UHGV virus genome: UHGV-0106586
Strand: one strand, 5' to 3'
Length of the DNA: 61,990 nucleotides
Source of the DNA: a virus
Both the position numbers and the translations under genes were made by a program. A model generated the notes under the pieces. The model worked only from the letters and a program-made list of their open reading frames with translations, ran no database searches and was not told where the DNA came from. This document shows, piece after piece, positions 36,307 through 61,990 of this stretch. Each line of letters begins with the position of its first letter. The first letter of the stretch is position 1.

Positions 36307-36498
36307 ATGAACAAAGAAGATAAGCATAAAAATGCTGTACGTACTCCTGATGGAAAGGTTCAATCCTTCATCCTGACAGTTGGTGGAAAGACGTTTCGTT
36401 GCCACTGCGGAGCAAACTGTTTTCATAAACCAGATAAAAATGACCTAGAGCTTTACGCATGTAATGCTTGCAATACTTGGTATCACTCAGAGGAATAA
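36307..36498 (+). CDS. small zinc-ribbon protein, paralog B
   Basis: FRCHCGANCFHKPDK...YACNACN; paralogous to ORF 35794..35979. Confidence 0.45.
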   Translation: MNKEDKHKNAVRTPDGKVQSFILTVGGKTFRCHCGANCFHKPDKNDLELYACNACNTWYHSEE

Positions 36499-36499
36499 A

Positions 36500-37600
36500 A
36501 TGACAATTCTATACAAACAAAATAAAGATGGCTCTTTTAACGTCTGGTCATGCGTTGCTGTAGGCGACAAAGTTATTACAACCTACGGTAAAGAAAATGG
36601 CAAGATGATGTTTGAAGAGTATACAGCAGAACCTAAAAACATCGGTAAAAAGAATGAGCGTAACGCTGAACAGCAAGCTCTCTTTGAAGTTGCTGCTAAG
36701 TATAAAAAGCAAGTTGACCGTAAAGGTTATGCTTACACAAAAGAGTCTGCACAGAATACTGAGAAGGTAGGTGTACAACTTGCTCATGATGCTGCAAAGG
36801 TTAGTCATGCAAAGTATTTGATATTCCCTGCTGATGCTCAACCAAAACTTGATGGTGTTCGTTGTAGAATTTCAAGAGATGCTGATTCAGTTAGCTTCAC
36901 GGCCTATTCTCGTGAGAATACTGTTTACAACGTCCCAGCAGAACTAATCCCAGATTTACTTTTGTTGCTTAAATTGCATCCACAAGTCGAAGACTTTGAT
37001 GGTGAGATTTATGCTCACGGTTGGGACTTAGAAGATATTGTGTCTATGATTAAGAATGCTGACAATCCAGAACGCCACCTTCTTAAATTCTACTGGTATG
37101 ATATCTGTGACAATTCAAAAACTTGGCCTGAGCGTCGTGAAGTTATTGATAACTCACCCATTATTGAGCTTGGTGATACCTGTAGAGTTGTTCCTGTACA
37201 GACTATCCGTGTTAACTCTTGGGAAGAGTTTGATGAAGCTCATGATAAGTGGGTTGAAGCTAAGTTTGAAGGTGCAATGTACCGTTCAATCTCTGAAGAC
37301 TCCTTCTATGAGTGTTGTCACCGTTCATACTTCTTGATTAAGCACAAGAAGATGCACACTGAAGAGTTTAAAGTGACTGGTGTAAAGACTGATAAGCGTG
37401 GTCATGGCAAGTTCGTTGTAGAGACTCTTCCTAACGTCTTTGTAGATGTCTCATGGAAGACTACTCATGAGAAGAAACAGTATCTTGCTGAGCATCCTGA
37501 AGAGTTTATCGGGAAACCTTTAACGGTTCAGTTCCAGAAGATGACTCGTAAGGGGTCTTTACAGTTTCCTGTTGGTTTAGTTATTCGAGATTACGAATAA
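36500..37600 (+). CDS. ATP-dependent DNA ligase
   Basis: KLDGVRC adenylation motif I (KxDG); size ~366 aa; ATG 36500 with AGGA RBS. Confidence 0.75.
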   Translation: MTILYKQNKDGSFNVWSCVAVGDKVITTYGKENGKMMFEEYTAEPKNIGKKNERNAEQQALFEVAAKYKKQVDRKGYAYTKESAQNTEKVGVQLAHDAAKVSHAKYLIFPADAQPKLDGVRCRISRDADSVSFTAYSRENTVYNVPAELIPDLLLLLKLHPQVEDFDGEIYAHGWDLEDIVSMIKNADNPERHLLKFYWYDICDNSKTWPERREVIDNSPIIELGDTCRVVPVQTIRVNSWEEFDEAHDKWVEAKFEGAMYRSISEDSFYECCHRSYFLIKHKKMHTEEFKVTGVKTDKRGHGKFVVETLPNVFVDVSWKTTHEKKQYLAEHPEEFIGKPLTVQFQKMTRKGSLQFPVGLVIRDYE

Positions 37601-37606
37601 AAGTTG

Positions 37607-37634
37607 TTGACATAGATAATTTGGTGAGTATACT
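37607..37634 (+). promoter_or_regulatory. sigma70-like promoter (-35 TTGACA 37607-37612, 16-bp spacer, -10 TATACT 37629-37634) overlapped by an 8-bp inverted repeat (37623-37630 / 37655-37662)
   Basis: Hexamers and dyad read directly. Confidence 0.5.
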
Positions 37635-37804
37635 GAGCATCATAAACCGACGGGTACTCACCAGCATCACTTAAGAGTCTTCTAAGAGGGTTTTTAAGTA
37701 ATGTTCGGTCGGGTTTGGTAGGGTAAGGTCGGGTAAGGTAAGGTAATGTATGGAAGGATGGCAGTAACCTTATAAAAAATCTGCCAAATAAGCTATAAAG
37801 TCTG

Positions 37805-37839
37805 TTGACAAGTCAGGTGTTATAGCTTATTTTTATACT
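37805..37839 (+). promoter_or_regulatory. second promoter-like element (TTGACA 37805-37810; -10 either TATTTT or TATACT) embedded in the inverted repeat agctataa / ttatagct
   Basis: Seen directly; -10 assignment ambiguous. Confidence 0.3.
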
Positions 37840-37877
37840 CAACGTAATACAAAATTTAATATAACTTTGAGGTCATT

Positions 37878-38261
37878 ATGAAAAAGATTTTATTAGCTGC
37901 TGCAATGGTTATGGCAATGAATTTACCAGTCAATGCAACAGAACTCCCCAATGTGGACTTATCAGGTGTTCCAGAAGACACTTGTCAGATTGTTAAAGGT
38001 GTTGCTTTGGCTAATGGTGAGTTACTTAAACCAATCTCTGAAGAGTCTTTAACAGAGATGACTGATAAGGTGACTGACTATCAGTATCGTGTTCTTGCAG
38101 AGTATTTCCTGCAATCTGCAAACATTAAAGAGAAGCACCATGAAGATATTGATGTACAGGCTATGCTCAATCATCGTATTCAGTTTAAAGAAGACTTGAT
38201 GCAAAAAGCTATGTATGGTGTTGAGTATTTCTTAGAAAACAGAAGCTGCACAGGTATTTGA
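37878..38261 (+). CDS. secreted/periplasmic hypothetical protein with signal peptide
   Basis: N-terminal MKKILLAAAMVMAMNLPVNA signal-like sequence. Confidence 0.5.
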   Translation: MKKILLAAAMVMAMNLPVNATELPNVDLSGVPEDTCQIVKGVALANGELLKPISEESLTEMTDKVTDYQYRVLAEYFLQSANIKEKHHEDIDVQAMLNHRIQFKEDLMQKAMYGVEYFLENRSCTGI

Positions 38262-38262
38262 T

Positions 38263-38475
38263 ATGGCTCTTAAAAAGTTACATCCCAGAAGCGGTTATGG
38301 TAAGATAATTGACGATACAGACGGCTTTACAGTCTTTACAGTTATCTGTCAAGATGATTCACAGATTGAAAAGGCTCTTGATGATTATCTTAACGATGAA
38401 CGTGAAAAGGTTAGGGCTACAAACATAGATTCATTGATTGACACTTCACGCAAACGGAAGAAGAAAGATGAATGA
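38263..38475 (+). CDS. hypothetical protein (70 aa)
   Basis: ORF in track. Confidence 0.35.
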   Translation: MALKKLHPRSGYGKIIDDTDGFTVFTVICQDDSQIEKALDDYLNDEREKVRATNIDSLIDTSRKRKKKDE

Positions 38476-38767
38476 GATTTTTGACCCTTATGCTCCACAA
38501 GATGATTGGGAGGCTGACAGAGAGGCTGAAATGGAGAGTTATATTTGTCCAATGGATGTAGACGAAATGAGAGACTTCGTTGCACATCGTTTTAAGAGAG
38601 AGATTAAATCCAGAGGTCTTTCTCAAGAGCAAGTTGCTAAAATTTGTGGTATCTCTCAGGCTCGTGTATCCAACATAATCAATCTCACTGGTAATGTCTC
38701 CCTTGAGTTTATGTTGGAAGTATGTGAAAAATTTGGTGTTAACTTTAATTTAAGGCTGGCAGATTAA
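38468..38767 (+). CDS. helix-turn-helix DNA-binding protein (XRE-like), probable transcriptional regulator
   Basis: LSQEQVAKICGISQARVSNI resembles an HTH; ATG 38468. Confidence 0.5.
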   Translation: MNEIFDPYAPQDDWEADREAEMESYICPMDVDEMRDFVAHRFKREIKSRGLSQEQVAKICGISQARVSNIINLTGNVSLEFMLEVCEKFGVNFNLRLAD

Positions 38768-38768
38768 T

Positions 38769-39128
38769 ATGAAACGTGAAAACATTATCCACTCTGAAAA
38801 CTTCGCATTAGGCTTTTATGGTGTGCCTACTCACCTTGAAAAGTATTATGGTGTAAAGATTCTCTCCAATCTCATTATGGCTTACAAAGATGGTAAGATT
38901 AAACATACTGAGAAGAAACGTGTCATGGGTTATATGGCTGTAGGTTCAGCAATCTCAAACATTAAGCTGGAAACAACTAGTAGCCAGATTGTGAAAGACC
39001 ACTTCATCAAAGAGCTTTACCACAATCTTGATGGTGTAGATGTTCAGGCTGTTTGGCTGGATGTTGATGGTCACAACTACACAAGTTTCGTTTTCAAAAA
39101 TGATGACATCAAGTGTCTGTTCCCATAA
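38769..39128 (+). CDS. hypothetical protein (119 aa)
   Basis: ORF in track. Confidence 0.45.
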   Translation: MKRENIIHSENFALGFYGVPTHLEKYYGVKILSNLIMAYKDGKIKHTEKKRVMGYMAVGSAISNIKLETTSSQIVKDHFIKELYHNLDGVDVQAVWLDVDGHNYTSFVFKNDDIKCLFP

Positions 39129-39141
39129 TAGGTGATTAACT

Positions 39142-39657
39142 ATGATTGATATCTACTTACAAGATGCTCATGCAGATTTCCTTAAGGAAATGCTTAAAAA
39201 GTTTATGGCTTCACAGTATGAGAATGAAGCATCTTTTAAAATAGTCACATGTGGCGACGAAGCTGGTTTTGTTGAGATTGAGCATGAAGGTACTGGAAAG
39301 ACTGTTTGTAAGTTACCTGATAGCATGTTCTCTAGCACATTCTTAGCAAAGACTATCATAAATGTTAAGCTTGTACCTCAGATTGAAACATACTCTGGTA
39401 CAGATTACCCTAAAGGTTTTAAGTCACTGATGAAGTACTTCTTAGATGACTTTGTGAGCAATCTTCTGCGAGAGGTAAAAGAAAGTCGTACAGTGTTGAC
39501 TGTAGAGAATATGGGAGGCACTATTAGGGTTACTTCTGACTGCTTTGTTATGAACCTCTTCGACTTCGTTCCTAAGAACTTTGATGGTATTCTGGATGAA
39601 GAGGATGACTGTGTAGACTTTATATTGGTTCTTGAACCAGTTTTTGAGGTTAAATAA
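39142..39657 (+). CDS. hypothetical protein (171 aa)
   Basis: ORF in track. Confidence 0.45.
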   Translation: MIDIYLQDAHADFLKEMLKKFMASQYENEASFKIVTCGDEAGFVEIEHEGTGKTVCKLPDSMFSSTFLAKTIINVKLVPQIETYSGTDYPKGFKSLMKYFLDDFVSNLLREVKESRTVLTVENMGGTIRVTSDCFVMNLFDFVPKNFDGILDEEDDCVDFILVLEPVFEVK

Positions 39658-45623: not shown

Positions 45624-51445
<5,822 letters not shown>

Positions 51446-51486
51446 TCATTTTTAACCAAGCCTTTGATATATAAGTATTTTCTCTG

Positions 51487-51556
51487 TTAAGCGTGAGCTA
51501 CGTAAAAAATAATTTTTGGTGGGTATATCTGTTCAGAAGATTTCACGTAGCATTCG
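51487..51556 (-). promoter_or_regulatory. conserved ~70-bp element upstream of gene 50615..51406 (copy 1 of 2)
   Basis: Shares blocks ttaagcgtg, tacgtaaa, gtgggtat, atttcacgtagca with 53631-53700. Confidence 0.4.
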
Positions 51557-51563
51557 ACTATTA

Positions 51564-53612
51564 TCAATCATCTTCTGGGAATGATGAACTTAATAGCGTA
51601 GCTTCTGCGTATTGGTCGTAGATATTACTGCTAAAGGTCATAAAGCTGGTTTCATCTGGTTTAATGGCAACTTCACCACCAAGTGAAACTTTCACAGGCT
51701 CCTGAATACGTTTGCTCAAAGCACTAATTTCATCTCTCAGGCTTTGGATATCCGTATTCGTTAATGCCGCATCTTGTCTCATGGTGATTAATTCTGGATG
51801 CTGGAAGTTAGCAAGATTCATAGCTGCACTATTAAACCAACCTTTCACATCGTCCATTGTAAATACTGGCTTAAGTCCAGACTCTTTAGCCAGCTCTGGT
51901 AATTTAGCTTGTGCTTCCATTCGTTCAGGTGTAGAGGCTAATCTTTCATAACCTGCATAGATAGCACTACCAGCTAATAGCATATTCCCAAGATTAAACC
52001 TTGATGGTTTCCCGTTCTTTCTATTCACGTTATCCGCTGTAGTATCAGCGACCTGACCTAATCTTGTGATAGCAGTCATAAGCCCGTAAATACTTCTGGT
52101 TACACCAACAACTTTATTTACAGCAATAACACCAGCCAAGACTTTTAAACTATTAATCAAGCCAGAACCTAAAGCATCAACAACTTTCTTTTGTTCATCG
52201 GTTAAACCACGATAAGCCAATGTCACCTCATCAAAGAACGCCCTTACCCTGTAACTAATATCAGTCAGGTTATCGACACCGTGTGACATAGAAGTCATGA
52301 GATTACCAAGACTTTCACCTAATGTTTTACCACTCCCACCAAGACTATTTAAAAGCGTTGTTAAGCTTCTTGTGAAATCTTGAAGACCATTTTCAGAACC
52401 TCTGAAGATATCCGTTAGTGAGTTGTTCCAAGTATTCTTTAAGTTCCCTAACATCGTCTGCGTAGAGTCCTGAATAGCTTTCCAGCCACCTCTGGAATTA
52501 ATCTGTGAACCAAGTTCTTTAGCAAACTTAGGGAGTGCATCAGAGGCTTTAACATCACCATTTTTCATCTTATCGAAAAGCTGTTTTTCAGTCAGACCTA
52601 AAGCCTTTGCAAATGCCTGAGTAGCACCCGGTAAAGCTTCAGATAGTTGCCCCTTAAGCTCTTCAGCCATCACCTGACCCTTAGAAGCCATCTGCGATAC
52701 TGCGGTTAATGCTCTTTGAATCTGCTCATCTGAACGACCCATTAAACGGGCATATCCAGTTAAGTTTTTAAATAATTCCTCTGAGCCTTCAAGACCCATC
52801 GTATTTTTTGCAGATGCACCAAATGAAGCAAACTGTGCTTGTGTTTCGGTTGTGTCCATACCAGTAATTTGAGTTAAATCTTGAATGAACTTTTTGACCT
52901 GTGTACTTTGGTCACCGAATACGAAATCAATACTTCTTTCCGATGATGCACGTTGAAGGCCAACTTCCATAATCTTCTGATAAGCGGATAGTACAGCCTG
53001 AAAGCTGATAAATGCACCTGCTGTTTTAACTGCTGCTGAACTCAAACTATCAAGACTATTAGCTGCTCTGTCACCGTTAATGCTGGTGGATGTATGACCT
53101 TTAGCTTTAGCAATTGCTTCTCTGACTGAAGCATTTAACTGAGCCAGCTTCTCATTGAATTTTGAATTATCCATCTGACCAGCTTTAGCAGATAGCCCGT
53201 AAAACTGAGATTTGATGTATTTCTGCAAAACAGGGTCAAAGCCCTTTAACTTGCTCATATTCGCTGAGTAAGCTGCTGTGATTGCTCTGTTTCCGCTAAT
53301 TCGTGGCTGTCTTGGTTGTTTTGGAGGATTAATAGCGTCATTAACCTGACTTGTGAAACGGAAAGCTTTTGTGCTTCTTGCTCTCTGTTCAATCTTGTCA
53401 AAAGCCTTATTAAACTTCCTTTCAAGTTGCCCTAAAGAACTTGTCAAATTACTATCAAGCTGTTTTGTATTAATCCTGAAACCTTTATTTAGGTTCTTTT
53501 CAATTCTTTGTGCTGACTGCAAAGCTGCCTTTTCAACTCTTTGCAAGCCTTTAACAACGTTTTCACTGAAGCCTAATTCAACGATAAAACTATCAACTGT
53601 AAATTTGCTCAT
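51564..53612 (-). CDS. tail tape measure protein
   Basis: 682 aa, alpha-helical low-complexity composition, TMP-like core QVMAEELKGQLSEALPGA, position upstream of baseplate genes. Confidence 0.7.
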   Translation of the reverse strand: MSKFTVDSFIVELGFSENVVKGLQRVEKAALQSAQRIEKNLNKGFRINTKQLDSNLTSSLGQLERKFNKAFDKIEQRARSTKAFRFTSQVNDAINPPKQPRQPRISGNRAITAAYSANMSKLKGFDPVLQKYIKSQFYGLSAKAGQMDNSKFNEKLAQLNASVREAIAKAKGHTSTSINGDRAANSLDSLSSAAVKTAGAFISFQAVLSAYQKIMEVGLQRASSERSIDFVFGDQSTQVKKFIQDLTQITGMDTTETQAQFASFGASAKNTMGLEGSEELFKNLTGYARLMGRSDEQIQRALTAVSQMASKGQVMAEELKGQLSEALPGATQAFAKALGLTEKQLFDKMKNGDVKASDALPKFAKELGSQINSRGGWKAIQDSTQTMLGNLKNTWNNSLTDIFRGSENGLQDFTRSLTTLLNSLGGSGKTLGESLGNLMTSMSHGVDNLTDISYRVRAFFDEVTLAYRGLTDEQKKVVDALGSGLINSLKVLAGVIAVNKVVGVTRSIYGLMTAITRLGQVADTTADNVNRKNGKPSRFNLGNMLLAGSAIYAGYERLASTPERMEAQAKLPELAKESGLKPVFTMDDVKGWFNSAAMNLANFQHPELITMRQDAALTNTDIQSLRDEISALSKRIQEPVKVSLGGEVAIKPDETSFMTFSSNIYDQYAEATLLSSSFPEDD

Positions 53613-53630
53613 TGTTCATATTTCACCTCT

Positions 53631-53700
53631 TTAAGCGTGTTGTACGTAAATTCTATTTTTCAGTGTGGGTATTAGCTTTACAGATTTCACGTAGCACACA
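53631..53700 (-). promoter_or_regulatory. conserved ~70-bp element upstream of the tape measure gene (copy 2 of 2)
   Basis: Same conserved blocks as 51487-51556 in the same order and spacing. Confidence 0.4.
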
Positions 53701-53770
53701 TACAAAAAAGGGAGAAACTACCGATGTCACTCGATAATCTCTCCCGTAGATTTTTACCCAACCAATCTTT

Positions 53771-53974
53771 TTACCCAACCAGATAATAATTGCCATCTTC
53801 ACCAACAATCTGACAATCACTTGGTAATTTATCAAGACACCATTTAGCGATTCTTCTGATTCTGTTATTTTGCTTAGAGGTGGATGATTTGATTCGTTTT
53901 GGTTTGTTGGGTTGTTCTTTCAGTCGTTCACTAATTGCCTTGATGAGTTCATAGCGTTCTGTTAAATCAATCAT
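53771..53974 (-). CDS. hypothetical protein (67 aa), N-terminus paralogous to the next ORF
   Basis: MIDLTERYELIK vs MNDLTERDKRIK. Confidence 0.3.
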   Translation of the reverse strand: MIDLTERYELIKAISERLKEQPNKPKRIKSSTSKQNNRIRRIAKWCLDKLPSDCQIVGEDGNYYLVG

Positions 53975-53999
53975 TCACCACCTCCTTTTTAATTCGATT

Positions 54000-54308
54000 T
54001 TAATCTAAGTAGTGTATACACTCGACACCGCGTTCATTCTTTTGAATTTCATAACGTAGTGAAAGACCAGTTTGATAATACACAGTATCAAGCTTATTTA
54101 TCTTATCCTTGAGTTCGATAAGAAGTCGCGTTAAATCATCCCGACCATCACACTTTAGTTCGGCAAGAGGCTTTTCGTCCATACGACCAATAAGATATTC
54201 AGTGACCTCCTGAATATCACCAAGAGTCGTTTTAATTTCATTGAACCTATCTTCAAAAGGTTCCATCACCCCTTTAATTCTTTTATCACGTTCTGTTAAA
54301 TCATTCAT
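54000..54308 (-). CDS. hypothetical protein (102 aa)
   Basis: ORF in track. Confidence 0.4.
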   Translation of the reverse strand: MNDLTERDKRIKGVMEPFEDRFNEIKTTLGDIQEVTEYLIGRMDEKPLAELKCDGRDDLTRLLIELKDKINKLDTVYYQTGLSLRYEIQKNERGVECIHYLD

Positions 54309-54316
54309 TAATCACC

Positions 54317-55027
54317 TCAAATAGCCTTTGCATATTTCTGAGAAATCTTCATTAACTGCTCAATATCGGCTTGCATAGCAATCTTCTTCTGTGATTCATA
54401 TTCACTAACAAGTTCTTTCATAGCCTGAAGCTCTCTTGAGAGATACAACTTAACATTTTCAAGTTGCTTGTTACGTGATGCCAAGATGTTCTGTCTAGCA
54501 AGTTCACAGAGTTCTTCATCGCTCTTATTAGTCATATAAATAAATTGACCAGCACCCCTTGAAGCTTTAACCATCTTCACAATTCGATATCCGTCAGGAA
54601 GATTATTAATCACGTCTGGGATATTCTCAGGAAAAGTACCAAAACCATCATTATCTTCGTATTGGTAATAGACAAATGGTTTCTGTGACAATTCATCCTG
54701 AATCTCAAATTCTGACGGCTCAATAGCTGATTGCATCAGGGTAACTTTGCTGTAAGCGTCATCAAGTTTAATACGCTGTGCTTTTAACTGTGGGTAATAT
54801 TCACGCTCAAGATTAAATAGTGCTTCACTTTTGCAGATATCTGGCATTTCTTGAGGCTCAGGAGACACAAAGGTAATTTCCTTTGGTGACATCTTTAACG
54901 ATTGCTCAAGCTTAATTCTTTCATCGTGTTCTTTACGCTGAATAGTGATAGCTGGATGTTCAGTCTGTGGCGACCAGTCACCGAAGCTATCAACCTTTCT
55001 GCCATTAATGTAAATATCATTTGTCAT
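54317..55027 (-). CDS. hypothetical protein (236 aa)
   Basis: ORF with ATG and GAGGAAAT RBS. Confidence 0.45.
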   Translation of the reverse strand: MTNDIYINGRKVDSFGDWSPQTEHPAITIQRKEHDERIKLEQSLKMSPKEITFVSPEPQEMPDICKSEALFNLEREYYPQLKAQRIKLDDAYSKVTLMQSAIEPSEFEIQDELSQKPFVYYQYEDNDGFGTFPENIPDVINNLPDGYRIVKMVKASRGAGQFIYMTNKSDEELCELARQNILASRNKQLENVKLYLSRELQAMKELVSEYESQKKIAMQADIEQLMKISQKYAKAI

Positions 55028-55553
55028 TATAATTTCCTCTAAGTGTGATTATTTCTTAATAGAGCACCTTCAACGCCAATACACTTAGAAGATGACTTAA
55101 CGATTTATTAAAGATGCTCTATAAAGAAAAGCCCTAAACATAGGTTCATCCTCATCTGTGAAGGGCTTTGGAGGTTTGCTTTAACGTTAACGAAGTTTCA
55201 GGAAAAAGTTCTGTTTGAAAACTCTTAAAGAAACGCCCTAACTCATGATTAGGGCAAAGCTGTAAAGGGTTCAATGAATGAATGATTAAGCACTTTTTGA
55301 GATAGCCTATCTAGTGTGGGCTAAATAGGCCATGACGAAAAGCATTGCACCTTTCCAACTCAGAATATAGTTATCATCGATGTAGAGACGATTAATATTT
55401 TAATTCAAGGAGAATTGCTCTCCCTATATATACAATTATGTCATGCTCAAGGTTATTTGTCAACAGCTTTTTAACAGATTGGTAACATTTATACTTTAAT
55501 AGATGCACCTGCAATCATACCAATCAATACAAAACAGATAATCACCAATTCCA

Positions 55554-55877
55554 TTAATGCACCACCTTCGAATCCGTCACCAAAATATTGTCAGCGTACA
55601 AAATTGCTATAGCTGCCTTGAGATATCTTTCAGGGCTAATACTGTATTTGTTCGTTTGCTCGATAACCAATCTTTTCATGTTGCTGTCTATAATTGGTAG
55701 CATCATTCGAGGCTCGTTAAACTCCACCGACTGAATAAAGTCTTCAATTACTTCTGAGTTATCAGCCATTAGCCTTAACAGCCTGTCAAAGTCAATGCTA
55801 ACACCTACATCAGTGAAAGCCTGAATCATCATAGCGGTGTCGTTATCAACGAAAATCTGTAATGGGTAATTGTTCAT
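55554..55877 (-). CDS. hypothetical protein (107 aa from ATG 55877)
   Basis: ATG with AAAGGAGA RBS. Confidence 0.45.
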   Translation of the reverse strand: MNNYPLQIFVDNDTAMMIQAFTDVGVSIDFDRLLRLMADNSEVIEDFIQSVEFNEPRMMLPIIDSNMKRLVIEQTNKYSISPERYLKAAIAILYADNILVTDSKVVH

Positions 55878-56032
55878 TTTTAAAATCTCCTTTTTACCAG
55901 ACCTCCTCAATCGCTCTGTAACGAGCTAAACAGTCTTTTTCAGGGGTAGCCTGTACAGTGGTATTACCCACCCTAAAATAAGATAGTTTTTTGCGTTAGA
56001 ATGCGATTGAGAGCGCCTGAGAAGCTATTTTT

Positions 56033-56320
56033 CTAATTTCTCTTAAAGTCTCGGACTTGCATAAGATTTTTTGGTCTGGTATCGGCTCTGTTACCATTTC
56101 GATGGATAATTTGCTTGTTGGATTGATAGCCATGATAAAGGAACCAGACAACATATTTCACGTAGAAAGTATATCGGCCTATATTAAATGTTTTGTTGCC
56201 GTAGTCGTCGGTATTTATCGTGACTGACTCTCCATCAGACCAGCACAGGGAATCACTGGATTCATCATAGATAAGGTGTTCTGTAAAATATCGTCTAACA
56301 TCTTCATGCCAAGGTTTCAT
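56033..56320 (-). CDS. truncated/degenerate HNH-like protein (N-terminal HNH region only, no AP2 domain)
   Basis: LIYDESSDSLCW...FYVKYVVWFLYHGYQ...IIHRNGNRADTRPKNL parallels the N-terminal halves of the intact HNH-AP2 proteins but with substituted catalytic positions. Confidence 0.4.
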   Translation of the reverse strand: MKPWHEDVRRYFTEHLIYDESSDSLCWSDGESVTINTDDYGNKTFNIGRYTFYVKYVVWFLYHGYQSNKQIIHRNGNRADTRPKNLMQVRDFKRN

Positions 56321-56532
56321 AAAACCTCCTCACCCCAATAACCTAATTCAATCTTGTGACGCTCAAACCATTCCGGTTTAACTGCTGTTTTCAGTACTTC
56401 ATTTGGGCCAATGGCTTTAATGAAAATATCTTTTGAGTTATGGATGTCACCGAATCCGTTTCCCTTAATCAGGAGGTCGGAGATGTGGCGAATCATTTTA
56501 TCCGTGTGGTATTCAAAGGTAACGCATAGCAT
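56317..56532 (-). CDS. hypothetical protein (71 aa)
   Basis: ORF in track. Confidence 0.35.
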   Translation of the reverse strand: MLCVTFEYHTDKMIRHISDLLIKGNGFGDIHNSKDIFIKAIGPNEVLKTAVKPEWFERHKIELGYWGEEVL

Positions 56533-56810
56533 TAAACCTCCATCGCTAACTTGTGAATCTTAAGACTCAATAGACGGGCAATATCAATCTTAAAGCCGTT
56601 AAGTGCCTTCAAAGTATCTAAAGCGTCCTGAGTAATTCGGATGTGCTTACGACCTTTAGAGACTGGATATTTAAGTAAATCCGACTCAGTGACCTCTTTA
56701 GCAATTGCAAGCTGCATTACAGTTTGATGAGGCAAGTTAGTAGCTCGTTTAATTCTGGTAAGCTCGTTAAAAGCTTCCTCTGAAATACGGGTTAATGTGT
56801 GTTTATTCAT
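56532..56810 (-). CDS. hypothetical protein (92 aa)
   Basis: ORF in track. Confidence 0.4.
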   Translation of the reverse strand: MNKHTLTRISEEAFNELTRIKRATNLPHQTVMQLAIAKEVTESDLLKYPVSKGRKHIRITQDALDTLKALNGFKIDIARLLSLKIHKLAMEV

Positions 56811-57368
56811 TTAAAATTCCTCTGTAACTAAATACGGGTCAAACTCGAAATCTGGTTGCTCGTTTTCCATTGGCTCAATATTCCCAACGGCAATATGATG
56901 TTCAACAATACCAATTAGCTTTGCACACATTACAGCAAGCAAAGCGCAATATTTATCGCTTGGTAATTCATGGCTAAGTCTGGTTGCTTGTCTTTGAAGA
57001 TAATTTGTCACGCTGGCTGCGTTAATTTCGTCAAGATTCTTTAGAAGATAAAATAGTTTTTTGTTGTATTTCGGGTGGCCTTCACTTCTACAGAATCCAA
57101 TGAAAATATCATCAAGCTTACTTGGTAGTTGCTCGTAAGAATCAAAGTTAGCCAGATAATTTTTAATAGTGTTCTGGGTGCTCTTTCTGGTTGGCATAAA
57201 TCTGTCTCGTGGCGTAATGCTACGAATTACTTCGTCAATGCCTTTGCGTTCTTTCTTGGTGAGCTTGGGTAGTTCGTAGCTGGTTGGGTTGTTTGTGTAA
57301 GCGTAGGAGTTGTGCTTGTTACGTTGTCTCGATGCCTGAAGCATCGCTCTAAATTCTGCGTCTCTCAT
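56811..57368 (-). CDS. hypothetical protein (185 aa)
   Basis: ORF in track; first gene of a minus-strand operon. Confidence 0.45.
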   Translation of the reverse strand: MRDAEFRAMLQASRQRNKHNSYAYTNNPTSYELPKLTKKERKGIDEVIRSITPRDRFMPTRKSTQNTIKNYLANFDSYEQLPSKLDDIFIGFCRSEGHPKYNKKLFYLLKNLDEINAASVTNYLQRQATRLSHELPSDKYCALLAVMCAKLIGIVEHHIAVGNIEPMENEQPDFEFDPYLVTEEF

Positions 57369-57419
57369 TCATGTTCCGACCCTCATAAGATGTTATTATT
57401 CTGTTAACTTATATATACA

Positions 57420-57448
57420 ATACTAGCATTTTCAAAGACTAATGTCAA
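57420..57448 (-). promoter_or_regulatory. sigma70-like promoter for minus-strand operon 57368..55554 (-35 TTGACA, 17-bp spacer, -10 TAGTAT)
   Basis: Read from reverse complement of 57420-57448. Confidence 0.35.
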
Positions 57449-57473
57449 GTATTTTTTAACATTTTATTAACAT

Positions 57474-57486
57474 CTGTGGTATAATG
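57474..57486 (+). promoter_or_regulatory. extended -10 promoter-like element (TGGTATAAT), plus strand
   Basis: TGnTATAAT seen at 57478-57486; no good -35. Confidence 0.35.
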
Positions 57487-57612
57487 GTTCTATGGGGAGA
57501 GTAAAATATAAAGGCGTGGCTATGAGGTTTATTCGATAGGGGTTGGTACAAGCCCAACTAACCGAATCAACTATGTATGTCACATGGTATTGCATTGCAC
57601 ACAGGAAATTTA

Positions 57613-57789
57613 ATGGTAAATCTCCCTCCTGAACTGGGGTCACCTGATGTATGGGCTGGTGGAGGTATCGGGCTGATTGCAGGTCTGTTACTCCGCTACG
57701 TCCTCGTCAGAGTGCTTGTTGTCTTTAAACTGTTCGGTCGTACATGGACGCTTGACCTTAAGGATAATGACCACACGGACCCCCGTTAA
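57613..57789 (+). CDS. small single-pass membrane protein candidate (58 aa), more GC-rich than surroundings
   Basis: AGGAAA RBS then ATG; GGGIGLIAGLLLRYVLVRVLVVF hydrophobic helix. Confidence 0.3.
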   Translation: MVNLPPELGSPDVWAGGGIGLIAGLLLRYVLVRVLVVFKLFGRTWTLDLKDNDHTDPR

Positions 57790-58840
57790 ACCCCCTTCAA
57801 AACCCCTATACCATCTCGTACAGGGGTATCTTTAGCATTTTGTGCTATCTATTAAAAAATAGCTTGACAGAACCAGAAAGCTGTATCTATCAAGTATTCA
57901 CCTCTCTGACAGTGATTTCTAAAAGTTCTTATTTTTCAATAAGTTGTAATTAGCCATATATAGTAGCTGTTCAGCACCTTCACAGATGACTTCAAGCCTT
58001 CTTAGCTATCCACTAAGCGGGAGAAGAGCGATAACCCCAGAGAGGGAAGCTCCCTTCTAATTGGTATTGTTATGAGGATGCTTCATCCGAATCATCTACC
58101 AATCCCTAAACCGACTTTCTTAACCAGCCCTTTACGTTATTCGTTCACAGTGTTGATAAGTGGTTTTGCCCTCTGTTTCTGTTATCATCGGGCTTACCTT
58201 ATCAGGGCTTTGAAATGCCCTGTAACTCCCCTCTTAACGGGAGAGAAAGAACATAGTGACCCCAAGCGAAGCGCCCCTCTAAAAAGATTTTTTAGCTACT
58301 TTGTTTAAAAGCACATCAAACGATACATTTTATTGATTTAGGTCAAAGACAAAAGCATTGACAAAATGGTAAGATTGTTCACATGACCTTACTTAACAGA
58401 TTCTTAAGAGCTTTGAAACAGCCTGTCTAACAAGGTCACTACCTCTGGTCTTATCGTTCCCTCTCTTCTTGGTAGTTCTGTTAAGTATTTTTCAGTTTTA
58501 TTCTTAAGATAATTGTTAAGATAGAACCTACCTTCGGTTTCATGGTTCTCTTCCTCCCGTTAAACAATTCTTCCTAACTATCTACATAATCACTACCAAG
58601 AATCTTACAAGGTAATATCCAGACCTCTTATAGTTGACCTGATACAGAAACATTACAGACATGCTCTCTAGGTTCTGTGTAGTTCCCTTGTTGGGAATAG
58701 ATGCTCCTACAATAAGAGCATCATTAATCTATATACTCCTCTTCCGAGAACTTAATGTTTTTTTAATGTATATCAATCATTATCCAAAATATGATATGAA
58801 GTTTCTTGGTAGTATTACATCAACAAGTTAATTGAAATAA

Positions 58841-59284
58841 GGAATATTATTTAGAAATGGTGTAAAAATCGAGGGTTCACTTGTAAATCCTAAACCAAGA
58901 CAATACCTGGCTTTTGGTTGTCGGATTAATGGTAAGTTCAGAATACTTAAGGTGCATCAGGTTATTTTCTATCTATATCATGGTAAACAAGCTAAACTAT
59001 AGATTGACCATATAGATGGTGACCCGCTAAATAATGCTATTAGCAATCTTCGCGAGGTTACCAAAGAGCAGAATCAGGCAAACATGATACCCAGAAAGAA
59101 AACAAAATCAGGTTACAAGGGGGTACACCCAAGAGTGGATAACAAGGGGTTCTGGGCTACAATACGCTGTAATGGAAAATCTCATTATCTGGGTCAGTTT
59201 AATACAGCAGAAGAAGCTGCAAAAGCCTATGATGCTGCATCACTGGAATTGCATGGTGAATATGGACACAGGAATTTTAGCTGA
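58841..59284 (+). pseudogene. HNH-AP2 homing endonuclease pseudogene: no start codon for the N-terminal part, in-frame TAG at 59000-59002, AP2-domain remnant retained as ORF 59084..59284
   Basis: Hand translation ...VHQVIFYLYHGKQAKL*IDHIDGDPLNNAISNLRE...SGYKGVHPRVDNKGFWATIRCNGKSHYLGQFNTAEEAAKAY parallels the intact copy at 34184..34687. Confidence 0.6.
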
Positions 59285-60237
59285 TAGTTAATAAAGACCT
59301 GACATAAACTTGTCGATAGGTCTGATTAAAGTTTATACAGTGATTTTTCATCTTCTAATTTTTTTATAAAAATCGTAGTAGCCTCTCTACATTCCCCTTC
59401 ACCGATAATCTTCAAAAATATCTACACAGTTGATTCGGTAGAATCTACCTCATGATTGATGGCTGTTAAGTACCCCAGATTCACGATATAGCACCCCCTT
59501 TGCAAAAGCAGTTAAAATATCTATAACCAATTATTGACTTTCTTTATAGCATCTGTTAACTCCACATCAAGAAACCTTTATCACACTTCAAAGCATCTAT
59601 CAAGAAGATTTCACCTATCAATAGATGTAACATTTTATAGTTCTGTGAAGTCCTATCCAGTTTTCTCTGTAACAGACACAAACTTCTGTGACCTTATGTA
59701 TCAATGACTTACAAGACATGCTCTCAAGGTGCTGTATAGCCTCTTATCTTCAAATACACAAAACCCTTATAAATCAGTACTGATACGTATACAGTTCGTT
59801 TTTAACATAATAGCTGTTTTACGCACTAATCGTGTTCTACATGAAATCTGTATAGATATTAAGGTGTCTGTAAGTGATTTTTTAAGAGGAGCTACGAAGA
59901 ACTATAACCATCACCTCCTAACTTTCACATGGGAAACTGTTAAGCAGCTTGATAGTCACTTTGAGGGAATATTGATAGTGACCAACTGCATAGATAGCGT
60001 TATATAGTCCTGTATATAGCACTTTTCTAGGAGTCGAGAGAGGGACGACTAACACGATACAGTTTACCCTGAAAAGAGACTTCACAGATTCTTTATATAT
60101 TTCAATAAGTTATGCTAAAAAGGGACTATATCAATACTGCATAGAATCTGTGTAAAACTGCTTAGATAGTGCATAAATACACCGTTGAATTGCATAATCA
60201 TTCACTGATATTGTCCTGTTATTAACAGGTATGTTCT

Positions 60238-60316
60238 CATAGTTGATTCGGATGTTCTAGGAATCATCCTCATAGTTGATTCGGATGTTCTAGGAATCAT
60301 CCTCATAGTTGATTTA
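60238..60316. repeat. 33-bp tandem direct repeat (catagttgattcggatgttctaggaatcatcct), 2.4 copies, with internal dyad symmetry; ~85 bp upstream of the recombinase-like gene
   Basis: Copies at 60238-60270, 60271-60303 and a partial copy at 60304-60316; related sequence at 59429-59464. Confidence 0.7.
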
Positions 60317-60399
60317 GACCTTGATGATTTTTATTAGACACGTTTAAATACACTACCTAAAGCGATACAATCTAGGTATCAGTTTTGAGGTGGTAAACA

Positions 60400-61659
60400 A
60401 TGAAACGTGTCATTTCATACATTCGTTTCTCATCAGAGAAGCAAGCTAAAGGCGACTCACTCCGCAGACAATCTAAGATGGTCACTGATTGGCTTAAGGC
60501 TCATCCTGAGTACTACCTTGACCAAGATTTATCTTTTCGTGATTTAGGTGTGAGTGGATTCACTGGTAAGCACTTGAAAGGTGGCTTAGGTGACTTCTTA
60601 ACCGCTATCGAGAAAGGGCTTGTTAAAGCTGGTATCAAAGTTTCTAAACGTTGTCCTGCATGGCTTAAGCTTAATGATGACCGTAAAAGCTTCTCTGTGA
60701 TACCTGAGAAAGTGGAGACTGTGAAGAGGTGCTTTCAGCTACGGTTAGAGGGTAAGTCTATCTGGGAGATTGTCAGAACTCTTAATGCTGAAGGTCACCA
60801 GACGCTTAACCAGTACAAAGCAGGTAAGTTTGGTCAAACATCTGTTCAAGACCTTTTGAAGAATCGCTCTGTAATTGGTTACTTCACACCTAAAGGCTGT
60901 GAGGAGATTGCAGGTTATTACCCGTCTGTAATTGATGAAACAACATTCTACAAAGTTCAACAACTATCACATTCTCGTTACGGTAGAAAACCTGCTTCAG
61001 ATAAACCATTGAGTGTGAATCTCTTTAAAGGTGTTATCCGTTGTTCTGAATGTGGTCATGCTTTGATTATCACAGGCTTTAGCGATACAAGAAACGGGAT
61101 TTATCGTTGTCCTCTTCGTAATGAAAACCGTTGTAGTGCTAAAGGACTTTCACGTAAGCAAACCGATGGTACATTGCTTGCCCTGCTATCTCGTCTTGAC
61201 CGATTTGATAGCGATATGACGAATACCATAGACACACTGAAGCTACACCGTGAACACATCTCAAGCAATATTGAAAAGCTGGTACAGCTATCACTTGAAA
61301 TTGAAGACTTGTCCGCTATTACCAGCAAACTAAGACAACTAAAGAATGAGCTATCACAAGTTGATGCGGATATCGAGAAGGAGACACAACGCCTTAAATC
61401 TATTGATGTGGGTTGTTTGTCTGATTGTGACTTGACTACAAAGGCGGGAAGGATTGAAGCACAACTGATAATCAAAAGTGCTGTTAAAGAGGTCGTTTTA
61501 AATACTGCTAAACGTCGCTGTAAAGTAACTTTTCACAACGGTAAAGCAATCACCTTACCAATAACAGAAAACCCCTCAGACAACGTTACAGAGGCTATAC
61601 AGTCGCTTTCTGAAGTCACTGAGAGGGGTTTAATAGATGTTGATGAGGTTATCATATAG
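60400..61659 (+). CDS. serine-recombinase-like protein (resolvase-type N-terminal motifs, recombinase domain, zinc ribbon) with apparently truncated catalytic domain
   Basis: YIRFSSEKQ and DLGVSG motifs; recombinase-domain-like middle; CSECGH...YRCPLRNENRC zinc ribbon; no DRLxR-type motif found by eye. Confidence 0.6.
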   Translation: MKRVISYIRFSSEKQAKGDSLRRQSKMVTDWLKAHPEYYLDQDLSFRDLGVSGFTGKHLKGGLGDFLTAIEKGLVKAGIKVSKRCPAWLKLNDDRKSFSVIPEKVETVKRCFQLRLEGKSIWEIVRTLNAEGHQTLNQYKAGKFGQTSVQDLLKNRSVIGYFTPKGCEEIAGYYPSVIDETTFYKVQQLSHSRYGRKPASDKPLSVNLFKGVIRCSECGHALIITGFSDTRNGIYRCPLRNENRCSAKGLSRKQTDGTLLALLSRLDRFDSDMTNTIDTLKLHREHISSNIEKLVQLSLEIEDLSAITSKLRQLKNELSQVDADIEKETQRLKSIDVGCLSDCDLTTKAGRIEAQLIIKSAVKEVVLNTAKRRCKVTFHNGKAITLPITENPSDNVTEAIQSLSEVTERGLIDVDEVII

Positions 61660-61673
61660 TTGAGATTCTATCG

Positions 61674-61990
61674 TCAGTAGCGCTTGTTAGGATTCACAGA
61701 AAGCTTCTTCAAAGTACTACCTGTACCAGCATTATTAAGCACCTTTGAAGCTTGCTCATTAGCGGCATCTGAGAAGGTGCTTTTTCCGTTCTCAACTTTG
61801 ACACTTCTACCACAATTGATACGGGCTTGAAGTTGCTCATTAGTAAGTTCACTCGTAGAGCGATTATATAGCTCCTGACACATCAACATACCGTTACCTA
61901 AGCTTGTTGTAGTGTTCCCTGTATTCTTCTTAGAAGTAGCACCACCGTCATTTGTAGTAGAAGTCTTTCCAGTGGCTGCTGAAATATCAG
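61674..61990 (-). CDS. partial CDS (3' portion; 5' end lies beyond the window) paralogous to tail gene 50615..51406
   Basis: Open frame runs to the window edge; 61891-61990 is ~88% identical to 50850-50949 (last ~60 nt identical); C-terminus ...LSVNPNKRY vs ...[11 protein letters not shown]. Confidence 0.5.

Follow-up and report, generated by a model that had tools for sequence, protein, structure and literature searches.

What is encoded in the 278-bp spacer that separates an ATP-dependent DNA ligase gene from a 127-aa open reading frame (ORF) in UHGV virus genome UHGV-0106586, a 61,990-nt stretch of DNA that we refer to in its entirety as the window? A preliminary description, made from the letters of the sequence, had read this spacer as a control region in which two promoters embedded in inverted repeats accompany a G-rich tract that might form a G-quadruplex or be bound by a helix-turn-helix (HTH) protein encoded nearby. 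The window is that of a Felixounavirus (Ounavirinae): it is collinear with Escherichia phage JH2 over positions 1–51382, and positions 37400–38000 match 258 phage records at 80–99% identity, nearly all of them above 90%. As judged from its sequence, the spacer constitutes a compact gene encoding a VIPR guide RNA (vrRNA) of SUSP1 type (type II), and the G-rich tract is its guide region. The gene stands alone, with neither vipr nor vap1 in the window, and on balance we lean toward the view that its RNA would serve as an orphan, trans-acting guide against the vipr operon of rival phages, i.e. as an RNA-based anti-VIPR device.

VIPR, described only in 2026, is presented as a RAMP-based system that is carried by phages and is older than CRISPR (10.64898/2026.04.26.720920, 10.64898/2026.04.26.720927). 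It comprises the phage RAMP protein Vipr, an accessory protein (Vap) and vrRNAs built of 9–16 YNNGG repeats (June 2026 preprint, bioRxiv 10.64898/2026.04.26.720920). In these RNAs, GGY is conserved, NN is hypervariable and the 3′ tail is invariant, with a pseudoknot in the SUSP1 clade (10.64898/2026.04.26.720920). Electron cryomicroscopy (cryo-EM) places one Vipr protomer on each repeat, with GGY hidden and NN presented for pairing with DNA (10.64898/2026.04.26.720927); this pairing skips every third target base of double-stranded DNA, and the 3′ pseudoknot caps the filament (10.64898/2026.04.26.720927). Binding represses transcription (10.64898/2026.04.26.720920, 10.64898/2026.04.26.720927). 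In natural targets the skipped base falls at the codon wobble position, and a satellite phage is targeted by 18 of 20 SUSP1-clade guides; some Pseudomonas-clade vrRNAs target other VIPR systems, and satellites carry vrRNAs of their own (10.64898/2026.04.26.720920). Small RNA sequencing of SUSP1 revealed one vrRNA upstream and three downstream (10.64898/2026.04.26.720920).

The G-rich tract of the window is real and non-random. Its excess of G over C (22) is the highest of any 50-nt segment in the 62 kb, and GGTNNGGTNNGGTNNGGT, with at most one mismatch, is found in seven overlapping matches, all within 37702–37749, against an expectation of 0.09 and with none in 100 shuffles. The preliminary description was right to single this tract out, but the GGTAAGG/GGTCGGGT repeats that it proposed are better parsed as ten NN-GG(T) units of period 5, perfect GGT being present in eight of them and TGT in the two terminal ones, which leaves AA TC CG TT AG AA CG AA AA AA as the NN code. 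Among relatives, the flanks are ~95% conserved, whereas the tract differs wholly in sequence and keeps its composition. Fifty distinct tracts placed in register (589 units) yield the logo N-N-G(0.81)-G(0.94)-T(0.86)/C(0.11), and their lengths, 9–16 units each, belong almost all to one residue class modulo 5; the repeat unit is thus a pentamer with a conserved GGY and two free positions. In a larger set of 86 distinct homologous arrays (~1040 units, 9–19 per array by our own parse), G occupies position 4 in 97% of units and a pyrimidine position 5 in 99%, NN is nearly uniform, and length differences are almost exclusively multiples of 5. Each tract is preceded by a hairpin rich in G.U pairs and followed by a conserved segment of ~40 nt, and this module of hairpin, tract and tail occurs in two to five copies in many relatives. 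The tail can be folded into an H-type pseudoknot in which 9 of the 12 pairs have changed on both sides across four tail types; 89.9% of cells are paired, compared with at most 42.5% in slid controls, and none of 500 shuffles reaches the observed score. Because the independent events are few and the structure was derived from the same sequences, this covariation count is supportive rather than decisive.

The genome of phiSUSP1 (NC_028808.2, our locus L025) supplies the link to the published system. Its order is ligase, small ORF, the first promoter (P1), leader hairpin, vrRNA, an ORF of 195/200 aa, a 146-aa ORF, terminator, three vrRNAs, the second promoter (P2) and a homologue of the 127-aa ORF (ORF127), in agreement with the published arrangement of one upstream and three downstream vrRNAs. 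The 195-aa ORF carries nine of ten residues named in the cryo-EM preprint (H17, K33, E71, M72, R138, C173, D177, W178, R179) in place, which identifies it as Vipr and the 146-aa ORF as Vap1. The window shares with this type II system a GGY/NN array in the 9–16 range, a pseudoknot tail and the same slot between ligase and ORF127; identity to SUSP1 is 96.8% for P1 and leader (37607–37699), compared with the sequence ahead of vrRNA1, and 97.8% for the tail and P2 stretch (37750–37839), compared with the end of the last vrRNA there. The combined fit of motif, unit number, pseudoknot, synteny and leader and tail identity is what assigns the tract to a vrRNA guide region, within a predicted RNA of ~100 nt. 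Unlike SUSP1, the window has one vrRNA unit instead of four, lacks vipr and vap1, and carries a guide whose predicted target is the vipr of its relatives and not the satellite phage.

A tblastn search with SUSP1 Vipr and Vap1 found no match in the window (best E 0.31), and both proteins are absent throughout the complete genomes of JH2 and skuden. The window therefore holds an orphan vrRNA gene only, laid out as P1, leader, one array, last-type tail and P2, and not a VIPR system. This single-module form was found in all 12 GenBank phages picked at random from the hit list; Vipr itself is present at 90% identity or above in ~118 phage records, compared with the 258 that have this intergenic region, and in 17 of 17 vipr+ loci compared it lies between the ligase gene and ORF127. 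Arrays from vipr-less phages preserve the GGY code about as well as vipr+ arrays do (perfect GGY, 72.7% versus 75.5%; G at position 4, 96.7% versus 97.6%; pyrimidine at position 5, 99.1% versus 98.9%). Six further vipr-less loci (L003, L009, L017, L024, L033 and L040) retain two vrRNA modules, with arrays that repeat, exactly or almost so, those found in vipr+ phages. The L003 arrays equal the first array of L027 and the last array of L029/L039, and two of the arrays from these loci still match the satellite. These loci look like very recent vipr-vap1 deletions, and the near identity of their arrays to vipr+ arrays suggests that such deletion by recombination between modules is both recurrent and recent.

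What, then, would an orphan vrRNA recognise? Guides were decoded by the published rule of skipping one nucleotide (NNxNNx..., on either strand) and compared with a local sequence set of 550 kb. Positions in vipr are numbered from a GTG that lies 15 nt upstream of the ATG, this ATG being M6 of the 200-aa reading and, on the strength of the cryo-EM residue match, the start of the 195-aa Vipr. The orphan guide of skuden matches vipr at 22 of 22 positions (nt 481–512), and that of EC6 at 18 of 18, in antisense orientation (nt 55–80). Orphan guides of the JH2 and ESCO49 lineage match at 18 of 20 and 20 of 22 positions, also in antisense, over a site that begins exactly at the vipr ATG (nt 16–47). 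The guide of FGS030, a sibling of the window, matches at 18 of 20 positions (nt 112–140), and the window guide matches the same site at 17 of 20 (nt 97–125 when counted from the ATG). The codons at this site, AAG TCT CTG TCC AGT AAA CGT AAA AAG ACT, are those of SUSP1 Vipr K33–T42 in the numbering of the preprint. Every one of these matches keeps the reading frame and places the skipped base at the wobble position of the codon. In the perfect matches, the invariant AT and AG dinucleotides beyond the array are left unpaired, which indicates that the guide boundaries were drawn correctly.

Such matches are unevenly distributed among classes of arrays. At a match threshold of 85%, 9 of 16 single-module orphan arrays match vipr and none matches the satellite; among arrays of vipr+ phages, 0 of 59 match vipr and 10 match the satellite; and for the two-module vipr-less arrays the counts are 0 of 10 and 2, respectively. 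For the window guide itself (17/20, 85%), the match to the vipr-vap1 operon was equalled in 14 of 5000 shuffles of dinucleotide order and in 2 of 5000 shuffles of nucleotides (p ~0.003); against the whole 550-kb set 3 of 30 shuffles do as well, such that the match is not significant alone. It gains weight because the same 600-bp gene is matched, in frame, by the guides of other orphan lineages at 90–100%. A more divergent vipr allele, that of vB_SflM_004 (92% identity), is matched no better (17/20). The stretch of vipr matched by the EC6 guide (nt 55–80) was the most polymorphic short stretch of this gene that we looked at (alleles in loci L007–L046), with an Ala/Asn replacement that arises through two non-wobble changes (GCT/GCA versus AAC); this polymorphism could be a trace of escape from anti-vipr guides.

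Gapped matches of 18/18 and 22/22 in a gene that is absent from the guide's own genome exceed chance and argue that these guides were selected to recognise vipr. Since such a guide would target the very genome that encodes it if vipr were present there, and no example occurs among the 59 vipr+ arrays, this selection should have taken place in, or for, vipr-less genomes. We propose that P1 of the window would start a transcript near 37641 containing the leader hairpin, the ten GGY/NN pentamers and the 3′ pseudoknot tail, and that this RNA would be made early, P1 being a strong promoter match. As the phage has no vipr or vap1, the RNA could act only with Vipr supplied in trans; it would be loaded by the Vipr of a co-infecting vipr+ relative and would direct that protein to the rival's own vipr gene, shutting down the rival VIPR operon. 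That orphan vrRNAs of vipr-less Felixounavirus-type phages in general are RNA-only weapons of this kind, turning the Vipr of a rival on its own operon, is a proposal that we put forward more tentatively than the one for the window.

Several observations weigh against an anti-vipr role. At the 85% threshold, vipr offers no target for the remaining 7 of the 16 single-copy orphan arrays, and the window guide is mismatched at three positions to each of the 17 vipr alleles examined. A sibling guide, that of SP4, contains an extra unit that breaks the register, and the guide of OPT-SAL01 looks like a chimera of two guides, which suggests that some orphan guides are decaying; the copy in the window may itself be past its useful life. 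No vipr+ guide is clearly directed against the phage part of the window, the best match (85%) being at noise level. The advantage that a vipr-less phage would draw from silencing the vipr of a rival is not obvious, and we infer the loading of any orphan vrRNA, and repression by it, from sequence. Finally, the main texts of the two VIPR preprints mention neither vipr-less loci of the Felix type nor orphan or anti-VIPR guides; their supplements may already note orphan guides.

The main rival explanation is that the unit is a decaying relic, left either by an anti-vipr guide that once functioned or by a deletion. In its fullest form it states that vipr-vap1 was lost recently by recombination between vrRNA modules, leaving a single unit without a role, and that P1 and P2 were kept for the sake of the downstream genes. 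We regard this account as possible, though clearly less probable than an anti-vipr guide. It agrees with the absence of vipr from the window, JH2 and skuden, with the fresh appearance of the deletions in the two-module loci and their retained satellite matches, and with the mismatches, broken register and chimeric look of the guides just mentioned. It accounts poorly for the class counts, since a leftover anti-satellite guide would show no match to vipr, and 9 of 16 single-copy orphan arrays nonetheless match it in frame at 85–100%, compared with none of 59 vipr+ arrays. Nor do GGY, tail or leader exhibit any extra decay in vipr-less phages.

Two variants of a functional orphan RNA do without an anti-vipr guide, and we consider them together improbable: the RNA may be a decoy or sponge for the Vipr of a rival, whatever its NN code, or it may be the partner of a Vipr encoded in an unseen part of the genome, with a target that has not been sampled. 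Loading as a decoy would be possible, given the strong promoter and an intact GGY and tail, and the 7 of 16 single-copy orphan arrays that lack an identified target fit this role; a pure decoy, however, would not need guides that match vipr at up to 22 of 22 positions. A hidden Vipr is conceivable inasmuch as the window holds only ~51 kb of phage sequence, but vipr always lies between ligase and ORF127 in the 17 vipr+ loci, and the two complete vipr-less genomes have none anywhere. As for a target outside the sampled sequences, an exact gapped-pattern scan of IMG/VR for the window guide (18 specified bases) found nothing, and a 20-base gapped pattern found three matches each in metagenome and GTDB genome collections. 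These matches come from unrelated metagenome-assembled genomes (including Deferribacteraceae and Christensenellaceae), have no neighbouring Vipr and are at chance level.

The reading of the preliminary description as an operator-controlled early or middle promoter region, with the G tract as a G-quadruplex or an HTH-bound DNA array, appears very unlikely as an account of the tract, although much of what it pointed to is there: P1 and P2 are good, conserved promoter matches, the inverted repeat lies over the P1 –10, and two-tier G-quadruplexes may form from the GG runs. The tract contains only three GGG runs (37711–13, 37721–23, 37731–33), the rest being GG, fewer than the four or more that define a G-quadruplex. 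A GGY conserved at a strict 5-nt period (its pyrimidine at 99%) with free NN is the reverse of the pattern expected for a DNA array bound in a sequence-specific manner, and the register, the variable number of units (9–16) and the covarying pseudoknot, an RNA structure with compensatory changes that flanks the tract, are explained by a VIPR RNA instead. The HTH gene and ORF127 are found in vipr+ and vipr-less relatives alike, which places both outside the VIPR system.

An older parallel to the tract is the Bacillus trp leader, in which about 11 (G/U)AG-NN triplets at a 5-nt period, one per TRAP subunit, lie between a 5′ hairpin and a terminator-like hairpin. The window resembles it in having triplets of 5-nt period in an RNA leader between two hairpins; it differs in that its triplet is GGY and not (G/U)AG, its unit number varies among relatives and its NN match DNA targets. 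A TRAP-type attenuator was rejected on the basis of the triplet and because TRAP (PF02081) does not occur by name in the annotation tables of JH2 and skuden, in which no profile search was made. An antisense Rho rut site, an R-loop origin, an array of primase sites, Chi-like or RecA-preferred GT tracts, Shine-Dalgarno-like ribosome sponges and A-mutagenesis of the diversity-generating retroelement type were dropped, as the definition of VIPR fits exactly.

Table. Positions of the features of the vrRNA locus, its flanking genes and the satellite in the window
Feature	Position	Strand	Details
ATP-dependent DNA ligase gene	36464–37600		left border of the spacer
P1, sigma70-type promoter (presumed)	37607..37634	+	TTGACA-16-TATACT; –35 37607–37612, –10 37629–37634; 11/12 to consensus
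8-bp inverted repeat	37625..37662	.	GGTGAGTA / TACTCACC; arms ggtgagta 37625–37632, tactcacc 37655–37662; left arm over P1 –10
Leader hairpin "A"	37669..37699	+	ACUUAAGAGUCUUC-UAA-GAGGGUUUUUAAGU; 14-bp stem, many G.U pairs
vrRNA guide region, ten NN-GGY pentamers	37700..37749	+	AATGT TCGGT CGGGT TTGGT AGGGT AAGGT CGGGT AAGGT AAGGT AATGT
Conserved 3′ tail, H-type pseudoknot (predicted)	37750..37786	+	S1 + S2
Pseudoknot S1	37754–37757 with 37768–37771	+	AAGG with CCUU
Pseudoknot S2	37759–37764 with 37781–37786	+	UGGCAG with CUGCCA
Terminator-like hairpin	37790..37834	+	AAGCUAUAA...UUAUAGCUU then AUUUUU; P2 –35 in loop
9-bp palindrome around P2 –35	37790–37798 / 37820–37828		AAGCTATAA / TTATAGCTT
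P2, promoter (putative)	37805..37833	+	TTGACA-17-TATTTT; –35 37805–37810; 10/12 to consensus; ahead of 127-aa ORF
127-aa ORF (ORF127)	37878–38261		signal-peptide-like N-terminus
Satellite copy	50848–61990		~11 kb, circularly closed
Phage-satellite join	50848–51382		within ~0.5 kb of shared baseplate-gene homology
attP-type junction of satellite	about 60325–60331		

The promoter elements deserve separate comment (Table). P1 and its overlapping 8-bp inverted repeat were found just where the preliminary description had placed them, as was the second TTGACA with its surrounding palindrome, which measures 9 bp, and its reading of both sites as promoters is reasonable. P1 is the sole TTGACA-N15-18-TATACT sequence in the 62 kb (0.08 expected), its hexamers are unchanged in 32 of 35 related loci, and this sequence stands at the head of the entire VIPR operon in relatives that are vipr+; P1 is the presumed vrRNA promoter. 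The hexamers of P2 are unchanged in 39 of 39 related loci, and the GenBank annotators of phage ASO1A independently marked it as a promoter. Since promoter-like sites in 36500–39500 are not above chance in number (7 versus 8.7 expected), it is match quality and conservation that speak for P1 and P2. The inverted repeat over the P1 –10 may be a candidate operator; it is invariant in the related loci examined, and covariation is accordingly uninformative there.

The minimum free energy fold of 37641–37845 has a z score of –4.0. The leader hairpin, being rich in G.U pairs, should be strand-specific at the RNA level, and hairpins related to it precede nearly every vrRNA in the multi-copy arrays of relatives, which makes it a possible processing or attenuation signal. 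The hairpin around the P2 –35 is terminator-like and is a candidate for the 3′ boundary of the vrRNA unit; a terminator scan did not flag it, owing to its AT-rich stem and long loop. An Rfam scan of 36500–39000 at E values up to 10 returned nothing relevant.

In relatives, the interval from the ligase stop to P1 is a hotspot for small inserted ORFs: FGS030 has an ORF of 200 aa there, SUSP1 and NRG857CP1 have a Cys-rich one of 62 aa, and others have one that is membrane-like (L001 1709–2311; L003 about 1700–1890; L009, L028, L034 and L069 upstream of P1). The vrRNA genes themselves, some 90 nt long, are unannotated or mislabelled in the GenBank records fetched. In ASO1A (L052 175–223, equivalent to window 37665–37713) the vrRNA leader hairpin is labelled a rho-independent terminator, and in FGS030, UAB_Phi87, JLBYU28 and P219 a "hypothetical protein" coding sequence is annotated under the match to the vrRNA region. 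These annotations probably need correcting, and they serve as a warning for others who use such records.

The right end of the window is not of Felixounavirus origin. A satellite of the E. coli chromosome is present there as a complete, circularly closed copy, which encodes a serine recombinase, a baseplate protein, a tape-measure protein, an HNH endonuclease and small ORFs, and which is 99.3% identical to an island in yecE (DUF72) matched in 481 of 5426 complete E. coli genomes. The contig is probably an assembly chimera of the phage and the excised satellite from the same sample; alternatively, it is a real recombinant. The window contains no tRNA or tmRNA genes. Felixounaviruses have ~20 tRNA genes, as annotated in skuden, and their absence here is explained by the contig running into the satellite, such that the phage part with the tRNA block is missing. 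It was this right end that revealed the satellite, a blastn search at "distant" settings with the phage baseplate-hub gene against E. coli genomes having found none. Under the one-nucleotide-skip rule, guides of vipr+ phages, SUSP1 included, match the satellite (51452–60821) at 85–96%, e.g. 27/28 at 54603–54643, with further sites at 55673–55704, 57401–57432, 52660–52703 and 53344–53387 and several matches clustered at 56.9–57.4 kb, beside a divergent promoter region. These predicted sites independently reproduce the published claim that VIPR of the SUSP1 clade targets a satellite phage.

Mobile elements that carry the RNA component of an RNA-guided system and obtain the effector proteins from another source have precedents in the orphan or mini CRISPR arrays of phages and in RNA anti-CRISPRs (Racrs). 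Like these, the window would have the RNA part alone and rely on, or subvert, an effector that belongs to others. It differs in that its RNA is a gapped pentamer code and not a set of repeat-spacer units, and in that the effector would come from a rival phage instead of the host and, as proposed, would be redirected onto the effector gene and not just sequestered.

vrRNAs as such were introduced by the two 2026 preprints, and what appears to be new here is their orphan, anti-vipr form. Because the VIPR discovery pipeline began from the protein, vipr-less loci would have been missed that way. This analysis shows that many Felixounaviruses keep the RNA half alone, with its code intact, and that most single-copy guides point to vipr. 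If the anti-vipr role proposed here is true, it would be the first counter-measure described for VIPR and a case of an RNA-guided effector hijacked by means of a self-targeting guide, and the rival phage could in addition be exposed to the satellite phage that VIPR normally represses. The proposal offers a hypothesis, open to direct test, on how VIPR is countered among phages and why no more than about half of the genus carries vipr.

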